DNA from: Alphaproteobacteria bacterium
GTDB taxonomy: Bacteria; Pseudomonadota; Alphaproteobacteria; RF32; CAG-239
Assembly: GCA_017546315.1 (NCBI GenBank)
Contig: JAFYXH010000012.1
Span: forward strand, 7,617-71,616
DNA: 64,000 nucleotides
Direction of reading: 5' to 3'
Below, in pieces: positions 49,702-59,767 of this stretch. Within the stretch, counting starts at the first letter, position 1. Each line of letters begins with the position of its first letter. The position numbers were made by a program, and so were the translations under genes. A model generated the notes under the pieces. That model did no database searches and had not been told where the DNA came from. It saw only the letters and a program-made list of their open reading frames with translations.

Positions 49702-51774
49702 ATGATTGATATTAGGAATATTGACGAAGAAAATGCAAAAAAACAATTAGAGTTTTTGGCTAAAGAAATAGAAAAGGCAGATATTGCCTATTATCAAAAT
49801 GACGAGCCTTATTTGGATGATGCGAAATATGATGAACTAAGACACCTTAATAATGCTTTAGAAGCTAAATTTCCGCATCTTATTAGAGAGGACAGCCCTT
49901 CTAGAAGAGTGGGGGCTAAAGTTAAAAGTGAATTTAAAAAGGTTGAACTTAATGTCCCTATGTTATCTTTGGCAGATATCTTTAATGATGATGAATTACA
50001 TGATTTTGTTTTGAGTATAAAAAGATTTTTGAACACTAATGAAGATATATCTTTTAGTGCAGAACCTAAGATGGACGGACTTTCTTTTTCTGCAATGTAT
50101 GAAAAAGGTGTTTTTGTTAGAGGATCAACTCGTGGAGATGGAAAGATTGGTGAAGATATTACTGAAAATTTGAAGGTGATTAAAGGTTTTCCTCTATACT
50201 TAGAAGGTGAAGTGCCTGAGATTTTTGAAGTTAGGGGAGAAGTTTTTATGTCAAAGAGTGATTTTTTGGCGTTGAATGAAGCTAATGAAAAAAGCAATAA
50301 AAAATTATTTGCTAACCCTAGAAATGCTGCGGCGGGCTCTTTGAGACAGTTAGATGCGAGAATTACTGAAAAAAGAAATTTGAGTTTTGTGGTTTACACT
50401 TGGGGAGAAGTATCTAAGGTTGTTTGGAATTCTCAAGAGGAATTTTTAGAATTTGTGAAAGGACTTTCTTTTCCGGTTAATCCTTATAACAAAATTTGTA
50501 AATGCGAAAAAGATTTACTAAATAGCTTTAAAGAGCTAATAGAAAATAGAGCTCAACTTCCGTATGATATTGATGGAATCGTTTATAAGGTTAATGATTT
50601 AGAGCTTCAAAAAAGGCTTGGATTTTTGACAAGAACACCTCGCTGGGCGGTTGCACATAAGTTCCCTGCGGAAAAAGCTATAACTCGTCTTAATAATATT
50701 AGAATACAAGTTGGTAGAACAGGCGCTCTTACGCCTGTGGCTGACCTTGAACCAGTAAATGTGGGTGGAGTATTAGTTTCTCATGCGACGCTTCATAATG
50801 AGGATGAAATAAAAAGAAAAGATATACGCATTGGCGATATGGTTGTTGTGCAAAGAGCAGGAGATGTTATACCGCAAATTATTGAAGTTCTTTTTGATAA
50901 GAGAGATAAAGATTTAGAAGAATTTAAGTTCCCTGAGTTTTGCCCAGAATGTGGAGCGCATGCTATTAGAGAAGAGGATGAAGCTATTAGAAGATGTACG
51001 GGAGGACTTACTTGCCCTCAGCAAGCAGTTGAACGATTAAAACACTTTGTTTCTCGTGAGGCTTTTAATATTGAGGGGCTTGGAGATAAAGTTATTGAAG
51101 AGTTTTATAAGGATAATATTATAAAAACTCCTTTTGATATTTTCACCCTTGAAGAAAGAAATAGGCCTCGTGATTTGTTTTCGTTTGAAGAAAGCTTAGG
51201 ACTTGAGAAAAGAGAAGGATGGGGAACAAAATCTGTTGGGAAATTATTTGAGGCTATAAATAAGAGTAAAAAGATTAGTTTACAAAAATTCATTTATGCT
51301 TTGGGAATACGTCAGGTTGGTGTGGCTACTGCTTATTTAATTGCCAAATATTATCACAATTTTAGAGATTTTATGAATGCTATGATCGAGAAAGATATTG
51401 CCCTTTTAATTAGCATTGATGGAATTGGATCGCAAATGGCTTTAGATATTGTAGAATTTTTTAAGGAACAACATAACCTTGATGTGATTGATAAGCTTAT
51501 TAAGGTTGTTGAAATTGAAGATTTTAATGAAGTTATAAATGAGGCATCCAAATTGACAGGAAAGACCATTGTATTTACGGGAACTTTAACAAAATTTACA
51601 AGAAATGAGGCCAAAAGTATTGCTCTTTCTAATGGGGCAAAAGTTTCTAGCTCGGTTTCTGGTGCGACTGATTTTGTTGTGGCAGGGGAAAGTGCTGGTT
51701 CTAAGCTTAAAAAAGCTGAAGAATTGGGTATTACAGTTTTGACTGAAGATGAATTTGAAGAAATGACTGTTTAG
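49702..51774 (+). CDS. ligA: NAD-dependent DNA ligase
   Basis: Adenylation motif EPKMDGLS, Zn finger CPECGA...C..GL.CP, HhH repeats, C-terminal BRCT ([10 protein letters not shown]). Confidence 0.95.
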
Positions 51775-52574
51775 AGTTTTTTCTTACTTTTTCTTTTATA
51801 AAAGCACTTATATATGCTTATTGAAATAATGTTGAAATATATTGTTAGGATTGAAGCAATATATATGAGGGTATTTGCATTGTATGTTTTATCTATATAG
51901 TATGAAATAATGAAAGGTAAACTAATCATTAGACCATACATTACAAAGCTTTTATAGTGATTTTTGGTTCTTTTGTAGGCATCCATAATAGATCTGCTTT
52001 TGGCTACTTGTGATGATATAAAAGCTAAATATGGGCGAGTTATGGTATATGGTGATATTAGCAACATAAAGCAATAAAATATTATCTTTCCGGATAATGA
52101 AGCATTGCTTTGTAATATTATCATATAGCTTTCGAAAAATTCTATATATTTATCTCTAAAGCCCATTAGCAATGGAATAAAGGGGATTAGAACGATTATG
52201 ATATAAATAGCGATATTCATAAACATTATTTTGCTAGATGGGATTAGACCATTGAATATGCGTATTAGAGAAAAATATGGACGATGCTGTAAAATATAAC
52301 GAATAAACATACTACCAAAGATGTAGTATGCTATAAGCCATAAAATGCTTAAAGAATTTCTCCATCCGTTAGGTATTAGGTTAAATATATATAGCAAGGC
52401 AAAGTTTATTAGACACCAAACAAGCATTGTTGTTTTAAAGAGTAGCACAAACTTTGTGCTACTCTTTAGTATCATCAACAAAGAGAAATCTTTTATTTCT
52501 GGAAATGATATTTTTTTATGCCTCATCTTCCTCAAAATCCGAATATTCCTCTGCTTCTGGGTCGTAATCCACAC
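51771..52574 (-). CDS. hypothetical polytopic membrane protein (last gene of T4CP operon)
   Basis: At least six hydrophobic helices and no recognisable family. The start is uncertain: GTG 52574, ATG 52526 or ATG 52475. The first two overlap the T4CP 3' end. Confidence 0.5.
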
Positions 52575-58417: not shown

Positions 58418-58498
58418 TTCGTGTCTCCTCACAAGTTATTTTGTATAATTTAACACAAAACACGACGTTTGTCTAGAATAAAAAAGCACATCAGAAGA

Positions 58499-59767
58499 TT
58501 ATATTTTTAATTTTTTTATAAAAGCACCAATCTTTTGATTGATTTTTATGCCGTCTTCGGGGGCAACCTTTATTAAACCGAAAAATTTTGGCTTTAATTG
58601 ACTAAACTCGATTGGTGCAAACATTGCAGGGTTTTTGGTTAGAGCCTCATAAGCACCTTTAGAATCCTTTTGAGCTGCTTTGAAATAGTTGTTTATGAGT
58701 CTATCGACATCTATTGGAAATTTCTTTTCTTTTAATTTCTTTATAAACAAAGCTTTTCTTTCTTGTAGAGCAATATATTCTTCGTATAGTTCTTTCTTTA
58801 TTTTATTTTTGCTTACAATTTCTTTCATTTGCTCGTATTTTACCTCGCATATTTCCATATTTATAAGGATTTCAACATACGAGATTATAACTAGCTGCAT
58901 ATCTGTGTCTGTTAAGCTTTCTGCAAAAACTAAGTATTCCTCATCTGTTGCATTGGTTGATAAGCGTTTCATGTTTTCTGGGTCATATTTGTTGAGAACA
59001 TCCCAGCTATTAAGCAGATATTGAGCTATTTTTTTACCAATACTAGGTTTATAATTAGGATATAAATCTTTGTCTTGGTAATCTGTTGATGGAGTCTTTA
59101 AGTTTTTTTTATGAGCAATAGCTAAAATACCATCTTTAAAATTGAAAAATGCACGAGATAGTTCAAATTCTTCTGGTTTTAGCTTTGTTGGATTATCATC
59201 TGAATTTGAATTAGAAGATGGCTCTGATATGCTTGATGATGTGGTTTGATTTTGAGGTGTGATAAAGCTATCTAAATTTTGAGTTTCTTGGGGTGATGAA
59301 TTGAGTAAGGTATTTGTAAAATCATCTAAGCTATTTTGAGCTATGCCTTGGCTTCCTGATGAAGATGTTTCTTGGAAGCTTGAAGAGGAATATATTGGGG
59401 TTTCTTTGCTATCGCTTATAAAATTGTTTAACAAACGAGCAAATTCGTCTTCTAGGCTTGTGTCTGTTTGCTCTTCTGATGTTGTTTGTGGAGAGGGCGC
59501 TTGTGTTTGAGGGGTTAAAAAATCATCAAGACTTTCTTGTTTTTGTGGAGCAATGGACGAAGCCGGAGCAGGGGTTGGTTTTGGCGCAGGTGTAGAAGGA
59601 GTACTATCATTATTGTTTATGAAATCACTTAATAAACGAGTGAATTCATCTTCTAAATTTGTATCAGATGTTGCTTGGGTAGATGTTTGGGGTGCTGAAG
59701 GTTTTTCTTCTTGTTTTGTAGATATGGATGAAAAAAATTCATCTAAATCATCATTACCGTTAGCCAT
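58499..59767 (-). CDS. hypothetical protein (422 aa): S/T/P/Q-rich region with repeated acidic L(D/E)(D/E)F motifs plus helical C-terminal domain
   Basis: SD AAGGAG. Repeats are TNLEDEFTRLLSDFI and TSLEDEFARLLNNFI, plus LDEFF, LDDFL, LDDFT and LDSFI. Confidence 0.5.
   Translation of the reverse strand: MANGNDDLDEFFSSISTKQEEKPSAPQTSTQATSDTNLEDEFTRLLSDFINNNDSTPSTPAPKPTPAPASSIAPQKQESLDDFLTPQTQAPSPQTTSEEQTDTSLEDEFARLLNNFISDSKETPIYSSSSFQETSSSGSQGIAQNSLDDFTNTLLNSSPQETQNLDSFITPQNQTTSSSISEPSSNSNSDDNPTKLKPEEFELSRAFFNFKDGILAIAHKKNLKTPSTDYQDKDLYPNYKPSIGKKIAQYLLNSWDVLNKYDPENMKRLSTNATDEEYLVFAESLTDTDMQLVIISYVEILINMEICEVKYEQMKEIVSKNKIKKELYEEYIALQERKALFIKKLKEKKFPIDVDRLINNYFKAAQKDSKGAYEALTKNPAMFAPIEFSQLKPKFFGLIKVAPEDGIKINQKIGAFIKKLKI

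Follow-up and report, generated by a model that had tools for sequence, protein, structure and literature searches.

Coupling proteins determine what a type IV secretion system (T4SS) transports. Here we describe an operon of six tightly packed minus-strand open reading frames (ORFs), g1 to g6, whose fifth gene encodes a type IV coupling protein (T4CP) of the VirD4/TraG kind. The operon lies in a window of 64,000 nucleotides (positions 7,617 to 71,616 of contig JAFYXH010000012.1, assembly GCA_017546315.1) that derives from an alphaproteobacterium of the RF32/CAG-239 lineage; "the window" refers to this whole stretch throughout. A first-pass annotation of the DNA had proposed six co-oriented genes with short or no gaps, among which the T4CP was the sole recognizable product. 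Our ORF check of the window agrees with it (Table 1), and an independent gene call on the identical public contig returned products of 422, 609, 164, 426, 739 and 251 aa. The genes are separated by 81 nt (g1-g2), 2 nt (g2-g3) and 53 nt (g3-g4), the predicted 21 nt precede the T4CP gene, and the T4CP-g6 junction is an 11-nt overlap. The g2-g3 junction (56590-56583) reads TAAGTATG, and Shine-Dalgarno sequences are present before g1 (AAGGAG), g2 (GAGGAG) and the T4CP gene (GGGAGA), again as had been proposed. A scan for promoters and terminators gave signal no better than shuffled sequence.

Table 1. Positions of the operon genes and associated features in the window, and of related features in other loci (prefix L).
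Feature	Position	Strand	Description
g1	58499..59767	-	422 aa, soluble; ORF with AAGGAG ribosome-binding site
g2	56588..58417	-	609 aa, soluble, hypervariable
g3	56091..56585	-	164 aa, two-helix membrane hairpin with short basic cytoplasmic tail
g4	54757..56037	-	426 aa, hairpin, disordered linker and cytoplasmic C-terminal domain
g4 C-terminal domain	54760..55254	-	residues 262-426, predicted PD-(D/E)xK / NERD-like fold
g5 (T4CP)	52516..54735	-	739 aa, VirD4/TraG-type coupling ATPase
g6	51771..52526	-	251 aa, basic polytopic membrane protein; start overlaps the T4CP stop
Palindrome / stem-loop	52436..52468	-	16-bp stem, 1-nt loop, inside g6 codons ~20-31
DNase-like/SUKH-like pair	L002:12237-13284; L087:11281-12272; L089:3826-5110		also in L030, L037, L039
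VirB8-VirB8-VirB9 islet	L120:2059-5282	-	5 kb from the T4CP operon

The coupling protein and its neighbours

The T4CP is the only protein of the operon with Pfam matches, scoring 189.7 bits against T4SS-DNA_transf (gathering score 20.1), 78.8 bits against TraG-D_C (22) and 65.1 bits against TrwB_AAD_bind (20.5; the models used were PF02534, PF10412 and PF12696). Hydropathy places two membrane helices at residues 19-37 and 90-108, and the translation contains the Walker A motif PPGTGKT, the Walker B motif VLDEF and an acidic tail; helices and motifs are kept in orthologs. These three lines of evidence agree with the first-pass description of a VirD4/TraG-family ATPase with two N-terminal membrane helices and, at the level of sequence, establish a bona fide enzyme of this type with intact motifs. 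The protein fits no named equivalog (VirD4, TraG, TraD or CD1115), as every NCBIfam match falls far below its curated cut-off: the best is to the CD1115 family (149 bits against a cut-off of 250), and the VirD4 model PRK13897 gives 129 bits against 728. The nearest annotated T4CPs, which are 34% identical from end to end with the membrane domain included, are encoded on Erythrobacter and Microvirga megaplasmids, where they sit within virB2-virB11 clusters. Relative to these virB-linked proteins, the all-alpha domain contains a conserved insertion of ~70 aa (residues ~290-360, window ~53650-53870), and the C-terminus carries a conserved VPDWIVAQR...DYDP segment that is followed by the acidic tail. 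By sequence, then, the T4CP represents a distinct VirD4/TraG subfamily marked by the insertion. More than 1,700 database relatives were found, the best 120 of which are 70-87% identical and bear names such as "Azospirillum sp. CAG:260", "Acetobacter sp. (MAG)" and "Alphaproteobacteria bacterium"; a phmmer search against PDB sequences gave no match.

The gene directly upstream, g4, had been annotated as encoding an unrelated bitopic membrane protein. Its product is instead a two-helix hairpin (residues ~4-84, by hydropathy) that is connected through a disordered linker of ~150 residues, which bears the conserved acidic motif HALFNFDEDDFDLDFDF, to a cytoplasmic C-terminal domain that is strongly conserved among orthologs. 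In the AlphaFold2 model this domain has a predicted local distance difference test score (pLDDT) of 75-90 and an alpha-beta-beta-beta-alpha-beta core, and the top PDB matches returned by Foldseek are AF1548, Nt.BspD6I, the R2 endonuclease domain, Card1, Cap4 and LmuA (probability at most 0.97, with modest E values of 2e-3 to 0.3 for the full-length model). Weak matches to the Pfam family NERD (PF08378) occur in 18 of 34 g4 orthologs (best E 0.008), the window protein itself having none, and one homolog, P0218, carries a precomputed NERD assignment. Because of the weak NERD matches, the modeled core and the Foldseek ranking, we place the domain in the PD-(D/E)xK superfamily with NERD as its nearest relative; from the alignments, no canonical D...(D/E)xK triad could be demonstrated. 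A profile search of 1.84 billion representative proteins gathered the domain family into 374 clusters. In the deep family alignment D303, W309, A311, E313, W323, S332, P333, N370, M374 and W378 are invariant. Close orthologs share D288...D303-x-E305 without a lysine; a BamHI-like D...D-x-E triad was considered on these grounds and withdrawn because D288 and E305 vary in the deep alignment. At the sequence level g4 has no PDB match by phmmer, its alignment profile retrieves only low-complexity noise from the PDB, and its domain has no tblastn match in the 72,556 plasmids of PLSDB. By sequence reading, the N-terminus holds the membrane hairpin rather than a helix-turn-helix (HTH). The protein is 100% identical to a protein from a metagenome-assembled genome (MAG) at NCBI (locus tag IKW58_03355).

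The first-pass annotation also noted that g4 occupies the position held in type IVB systems by dotM. This positional analogy stands, but it does not extend to sequence or fold: g4 has no DotM match and its model resembles nucleases, which rules it out as a DotM equivalent. In some large, otherwise unrelated proteins the g4-type domain is fused to other modules, namely TPR-x-Roc-COR-TIR (P0430 and P0444) and AAA+ (x-AAA+ in P0491, P0496, P0498 and P0508). Such ROCO/TIR and AAA+ fusions are architectures typical of conflict or immunity systems.

The three genes ahead of g4 had been described as a small membrane paralog and two large, partly disordered proteins, and this description is borne out. 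BLASTP with g4 orthologs, together with hydropathy, identifies g3 as a paralog of the g4 N-terminal hairpin; it has a nearly constant length (158-179 aa), is present in 77 of the 83 genome loci introduced below and is missing from deep lineages that possess only g4. The g1 protein starts with ~190 disordered residues containing repeated acidic-aromatic motifs (LEDEFxRLLxxFI twice, with GLDSF-type repeats in orthologs) and continues into an all-alpha domain at residues ~195-380, which AlphaFold2 models with pLDDT above 90 for residues 200-340. Its orthologs, 35-63% identical and invariably the first gene of the operon, were found in 72 of the 83 loci. It has no Pfam or PDB sequence match, its alignment profile yields only low-complexity noise against the PDB, and its model has no significant PDB fold match (best Foldseek E 1.4). 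In g2, an acidic, Gly/Pro-rich disordered N-terminus leads to a short conserved hydrophobic motif (residues ~150-200), and the long rest of the protein is helical and resembles a coiled coil. In loci with the full operon, the gene in this position encodes 427-740 aa; mean column identity is only 14%, yet all members are joined by transitive BLASTP. The only other signal for g2 is a weak likeness to the coiled-coil tail of ZorA found with PADLOC, which we attribute to coiled-coil similarity. Acidic-aromatic motifs recur at residues ~38-51 and ~105-117 of g1, ~185-200 of g4 (FNFDEDDFDLDFDF) and ~722-739 of the T4CP, a possible set of docking peptides for one shared partner.

None of the five neighbours (g1, g2, g3, g4 and g6) matches a T4SS, relaxosome, defence or phage family in Pfam, NCBIfam, PADLOC or PHROGs, and PDB profile searches and Foldseek likewise assign none of them to a known T4SS or relaxosome family. 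Searches of the nearest plasmid T4SS clusters found no homologs of g1-g4 there.

Conservation of the locus and the genes that follow the coupling protein

To place the operon in a wider context, we scanned one genome per GTDB species and found a T4CP relative in 404 genomes. The best 80 of these, which were examined, are all gut or rumen alphaproteobacterial MAGs (T4CP identity 67-93%). The order g1-g2-g3-g4-T4CP is repeated in 83 loci of these related genomes and synteny extends over at least 80 species. The surrounding context is constant, with rpoH and rluD on the opposite strand, in many loci a DUF6476 gene, and then the five genes up to the T4CP. The T4CP has a median identity of 71% to its counterpart in the window, as compared to 78% for RpoH, 60% for RluD, 42% for g4, 46% for g1 and 29% for g3, and its identity values are correlated with those of RpoH (r = 0.85) and RluD (r = 0.90). 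T4CP divergence thus tracks rpoH and rluD, and the operon has therefore been inherited vertically; purifying selection constrains the T4CP to the same degree as it does housekeeping genes.

A second scan, of metagenomes with the g4 alignment, added 80 further loci, 70 of which have downstream sequence and are informative for the T4CP. A g4-like gene stands immediately before the T4CP in all 70, upstream of it in all 83 genome loci, and also in distant lineages. Judged by this gene neighbourhood, g4 is an obligate genetic partner of the T4CP. Among the distant lineages, P0390 and P0388 (37-41% guanine-plus-cytosine, with T4CPs 55-60% identical to this clade's references) have the g4-like gene directly before the T4CP in another chromosomal context and without g1-g3; three further distant g4 relatives (P0505, P0458 and P0428) were excluded because their contigs are short or they do not adjoin a T4CP. 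The first-pass annotation had treated lack of synteny in relatives, or assignment of the neighbours to known T4SS or relaxosome families, as grounds for rejecting an accessory set around the T4CP. Gene order proved to be kept, no such assignment was found, and the proposed lineage-specific set is thereby strengthened. The bins to which the contigs of three loci (L068, L072 and L074) were assigned on deposition bear the names Lachnospiraceae bacterium, [Ruminococcus] gnavus and Bacteroidaceae bacterium, probably as a result of binning contamination in those MAGs.

What follows the T4CP differs between lineages. The slot is filled by a DNase-like gene and a SUKH-like gene in 29 of the 41 metagenome loci that are informative here, as well as in 15 genome loci and the distant lineages, and by g6 in 36-38 of the 83 genome loci and 6 of those 41; the two arrangements are mutually exclusive. 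The DNase-like protein has ~200 aa and an HNH-like C-terminus, in which H142, N157, H167 and H171 (H...N...H...H), all four catalytic or metal-binding positions, are invariant. An hhalign comparison of alignments A8 and A12, the latter containing the DNase domains of colicin E9, klebicin and type VII secretion system toxins, gave a probability of 72.7% (E 3.2e-5 over 74 columns), and a PDB profile search gave only a weak match, to the DNase of pyocin AP41 (E 0.35). The SUKH-like protein (~150 aa) matches SUKH_5, SUKH_6 and SMI1_KNR4 in 3 of 3 divergent members, with E values of 5.9e-5 to 0.04 that are all below the gathering scores. The pairing of SUKH with a colicin-type DNase is a classic toxin-immunity signature, and by sequence the two genes look like a toxin-immunity pair, the colicin-type homology being moderately supported.

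Because the distant lineages and metagenome loci hold these genes, we set the deep core of the operon as g4-T4CP, usually followed by the DNase-like and SUKH-like genes. The six-gene unit of the first-pass annotation is accordingly too large, g6 being restricted to one sub-clade. On the same comparative grounds, g1-g3 are later additions, g3 by duplication of the g4 hairpin, and the window's lineage has swapped the DNase-like/SUKH-like pair for g6, a sub-clade-specific accessory. In nine loci (L042, L047, L053, L057, L058, L060, L064, L080 and L081) a canonical terminator, made up of a stem-loop and a T-run, lies 14-19 nt past the T4CP stop; this direct terminator occurs in lineages without g6 and without the pair, and the operon therefore ends at the T4CP there.

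Within the g6 sub-clade, a perfect 16-bp stem with a 1-nt loop lies 47 nt past the T4CP stop in the 5' coding part of g6. It is kept in all 26 g6-sub-clade loci, where 90.5% of cells are paired as compared to 32-53% in slid controls, and 6 of the 16 pairs show compensatory, largely synonymous changes; none of 500 shuffles reached the observed values. No Rfam family matches it. The palindrome was also considered as an oriT-like DNA repeat, which is disfavored by its many sense-strand G-U pairs, its compensatory synonymous changes and its restriction to the g6 sub-clade. Because of the G-U pairs we read it as RNA rather than DNA; the element is probably an mRNA structure, which may tune g6 expression or mark a processing site.

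The remaining 56 kb of the window hold, by reading of the translations, housekeeping genes (UvrD, GatAB, SecDF, SufBS, TopA, DprA, BamA, LpxD, SucCD, TolC, GlgP, InfC, LigA, RluD and RpoH) and a few ORFans. Several ORFs without a Pfam match lie at 5838-7262, 18149-18685, 19507-20154, 41662-42522, 43955-44617 and 46292-47725, the two at 18149-18685 and 19507-20154 appearing paralogous on visual inspection. If the genome has a T4SS, all of these ORFs are candidate effectors, but nothing ties them to the operon. At the g1 end, the longest ORF of rluD (TTG at 59771) begins 3 nt from the g1 start. With the rluD start of the public gene call, which lies ~100 nt further on, a short divergent promoter region remains between the two genes. 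A DUF6476 gene of ~95 aa, found between rluD and g1 in many relatives (e.g. L002:5227-5511), is missing from the window (59768-59872) and from the window's sub-clade.

Channel, substrates and competing explanations

The first-pass annotation had described the T4CP as an orphan. This holds for the 64-kb window, in which no VirB gene was found by tblastn with VirB2-B11 of the nearest plasmid system and the VirB8/VirB9 of a relative, nor any mating-pair-formation or relaxase gene by reading of the translations, all of these being moderately sensitive methods. The orphan status is nonetheless probably only apparent, given the virB-linked position of the nearest annotated T4CPs and a VirB islet in one relative. 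In this relative (L120, a 131-kb contig), a VirB8-VirB8-VirB9 islet is separated from the T4CP operon by esterase and DEAD-box helicase genes; of four reference T4CPs from the family, the one nearest to the L120 T4CP shares 69% identity with it. The two VirB8 proteins score 76.6 and 41.3 bits (gathering score 23.2) and the VirB9/CagX protein, which has a C-terminal SPOR domain, scores 47.9 bits (34.2). Both VirB8 and VirB9 are ~30% identical to the proteins of the Erythrobacter plasmid system, a distance similar to that of the T4CP (34%), which fits a common origin. Division into islets, a duplicated virB8 and vertical descent are also the pattern of rvh, the dispersed and duplicated (virB8, virB9) VirB/D4 system that is vertically inherited in Rickettsiales (PMC2653234), and because of this pattern we count the T4CP as part of a dispersed T4SS. 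For the window's organism, of whose DNA 64 kb were examined, we infer the channel from these relatives.

We thus read the operon as housing the coupling protein of a dispersed, rvh-like VirB/D4 system in an islet of its own, with a lineage-specific accessory set around the T4CP-g4 pair and a function in coupling toxins or effectors, an interpretation that we hold with about as much confidence as doubt. On the best reading of the data, this system belongs to the core traits of a large uncultured clade of gut and rumen Alphaproteobacteria and is passed on vertically within it. In the mechanism that we envisage, the hairpins of g4 and g3 would pack against the two membrane helices of the T4CP hexamer, forming a lineage-specific inner-membrane receptor platform that would resemble DotL-DotM in role and not in ancestry. 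At the cytoplasmic face, the nuclease-fold domain of g4 on its flexible linker and the helical g1 protein would recruit or hold substrates, and the acidic-aromatic motifs of g1, the g4 linker and the T4CP tail might serve as docking peptides. The T4CP would then receive the substrates, which would exit through VirB channel components encoded in other islets.

The accessory set probably recruits protein toxins. The first-pass suggestion of a T4CP with dedicated substrates gains support from the DNase-like/SUKH-like pair, which adjoins the T4CP in most relatives and points to toxin delivery, but the suggestion lacks this support in the window itself, from which the pair is absent. In most relatives the dedicated substrate would probably be the colicin-type HNH DNase with its SUKH immunity-like partner, and the system would deliver toxin to neighbouring cells; HNH-superfamily DNase effectors that are recognized by VirD4 and have immunity proteins provide a precedent (PMC11253643). 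In the window's sub-clade, where g6 stands in place of the pair, the hypervariable g2 is a candidate substrate. Several observations weigh against toxin coupling through a dispersed channel. The DNase-like/SUKH-like pair is missing from the whole of the window's sub-clade and, where present, is vertically inherited and fairly conserved, which is unusual for polymorphic toxin cassettes. Neither an XVIPCD-like nor another known T4SS signal was found with Pfam in g1, g2 or the DNase-like protein, the presence of an XVIPCD model in that search being unverified. No VirB gene was detected in the window or, in 169 of 170 related loci, within 10 kb of the operon. Finally, the modeled nuclease fold in an obligate T4CP partner points to nucleic acid, and not protein, as the substrate.

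This last point leads to a DNA-processing explanation, which we consider rather unlikely. Here g4 would be a membrane-tethered, relaxase-like nuclease that nicks or otherwise processes DNA at the membrane before feeding it to the T4CP, in analogy to the PD-(D/E)xK relaxases of the MOBC family. Chromosomal DNA would be exported or exchanged via the T4SS in a domesticated conjugation or DNA-release system, with the HNH protein of the relatives as a second nuclease in DNA processing, under the control of the SUKH protein. T4CP genes usually adjoin relaxase genes, the g4 domain has a predicted nuclease fold in which D303 and E313 never vary across the deep family, and no relaxase is recognized in the nearest plasmid T4SS clusters, which are typed as non-mobilizable and lie amid DNA-metabolism genes; the vertical conservation of the HNH-like partner, unlike that of usual toxin cassettes, also fits. 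Set against these points, the pairing of this partner with SUKH is itself the toxin-immunity signature, the canonical D...(D/E)xK triad is not conserved in g4 (D288 and E305 vary and there is no lysine), the tblastn search of plasmids with its domain was empty, and no conserved oriT-like DNA repeat was found, the lone conserved hairpin being RNA-like and confined to one sub-clade. The relaxases TraX and MobC of the MOBC family are PD-(D/E)xK enzymes (PMC12857230), and operons that combine genes for a MobC-like relaxase, a membrane protein and a coupling ATPase do exist outside plasmids, but MobC-type relaxases have an N-terminal HTH (PMC3357382), whereas g4 has neither an HTH nor another DNA-binding module. 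In a related proposal, which is distinctly doubtful, the tethered g4 domain would replace an HUH relaxase and cut or hold nucleic acid at the mouth of the T4CP, so that the T4SS would export chromosomal DNA or nucleoprotein besides or instead of toxins. If true, this nucleic-acid reading of g4 would make the operon a domesticated conjugation-like system and a new kind of substrate-processing coupling complex, and DNA processing by g4 would be a new route of T4SS substrate processing.

Two further explanations dispense with a functioning T4SS. T4CPs are members of the FtsK/HerA superfamily, and, much as in HerA-nuclease pairs, the T4CP and the tethered nuclease-fold protein could together make up an inner-membrane device of ATPase and nuclease. 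Its role would be to defend the cell against incoming DNA, to take up or degrade DNA, or to handle the chromosome. The near-universal lack of nearby VirB genes would be explained in this way, the g4-T4CP pair is self-contained and moves between chromosomal contexts, and the TPR-Roc-COR-TIR and AAA+ fusions of the g4-type domain are those of conflict systems. We nevertheless judge such a device quite improbable: PADLOC finds no defence-system match, a defence island would not be expected to stay at one locus and descend vertically across the order (67-93% identity), both membrane helices of the T4CP are retained and align end to end with those of a T4SS-linked T4CP, and VirB8 and VirB9 do occur in the group, at about the same distance from the Erythrobacter plasmid system as the T4CP. 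The isolation of the T4CP from other transfer genes in the window could also be that of a decaying remnant of an integrated conjugative element, or the adjacency could be due to chance, but these possibilities are effectively refuted by synteny and conservation. No ORF is disrupted, the ATPase motifs are preserved, the gene order is repeated in more than 150 loci with conservation above that of LigA and RluD, and an integrase, a flanking tRNA and a compositional anomaly are all absent.

Comparison with known systems

A literature search on this clade (RF32, CAG-239), on orphan VirD4 proteins and on NERD domains with T4SSs returned nothing relevant, with no paper describing the operon or the pairing of a T4CP with a NERD-like protein and no description of this clade's cell-to-cell interactions. 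The closest parallel to the dispersed VirB/D4 system that we favor is rvh. Both are chromosomal, vertically inherited, of the VirB/D4 type, split into islets and found in host-associated Alphaproteobacteria (PMC2653234), and both have a duplicated virB8, which in the present case is known from one islet of one relative (L120). They differ in that virD4 of rvh directly follows virB8-virB9-virB10-virB11, whereas the T4CP described here stands in an islet of its own with g1-g4, which have no counterparts in rvh; the likeness is drawn from gene layout and inheritance, with no rvh sequences compared. With respect to substrates, the X-T4SS of Xanthomonadales (X-Tfe/X-Tfi, including the DNase TfdA) similarly combines a VirD4-type T4CP with HNH-superfamily DNase-like and immunity-like genes (PMC11253643). 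In the window's relatives these genes directly follow the T4CP, and the window has no such pair. The present system further differs from X-T4SS in that no XVIPCD was detected, the immunity-like protein is of the SUKH type and g1-g4 lack X-T4SS equivalents; killing is predicted only.

The MOBC modules (MobB and MobC of CloDF13, TraX of pAD1) share with the operon a T4CP gene that lies beside a gene for a PD-(D/E)xK-fold protein and away from mating-pair-formation genes (PMC12857230, PMC3357382). Going by the published descriptions of MobC and TraX, g4 is set apart by its membrane anchor, the lack of an N-terminal HTH and the absence of plasmid similarity, and its operon belongs to no mobile element, being a core locus of the chromosome that is passed on vertically. 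The NERD family (PF08378) resembles the g4 domain in its recurrent weak profile matches, its core fold and the nuclease matches retrieved by Foldseek. The g4 orthologs, however, score well below the significance expected of NERD members, have an atypical catalytic motif and form a family of their own with 374 clusters.

To our knowledge, only one elaborate and well-characterized coupling complex has been described, the Dot/Icm complex of Legionella (DotL-DotM-DotN-IcmSW-LvgA). The operon defines a second, unrelated accessory set around a VirD4-type T4CP, whose universal member is a membrane-tethered protein with a predicted nuclease fold. It is a core, strongly constrained feature of a large uncultured clade, with relatives in 404 species-level genomes, and its link to a colicin-type DNase and SUKH in most relatives suggests contact-dependent antagonism in the gut. 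No sequence or fold relation connects it to Dot/Icm: g4 matches PD-(D/E)xK nucleases and has no DotM match in Pfam, NCBIfam or the PDB, and the T4CP is of the VirD4/type IVA kind, with no DotL model among its NCBIfam matches. The relationship is therefore one of analogy and not of membership. In each system the gene directly upstream of the T4CP gene encodes a membrane protein in which N-terminal membrane helices precede a cytoplasmic domain, soluble proteins complete the accessory set, and acidic peptide motifs could plausibly act as docking signals.

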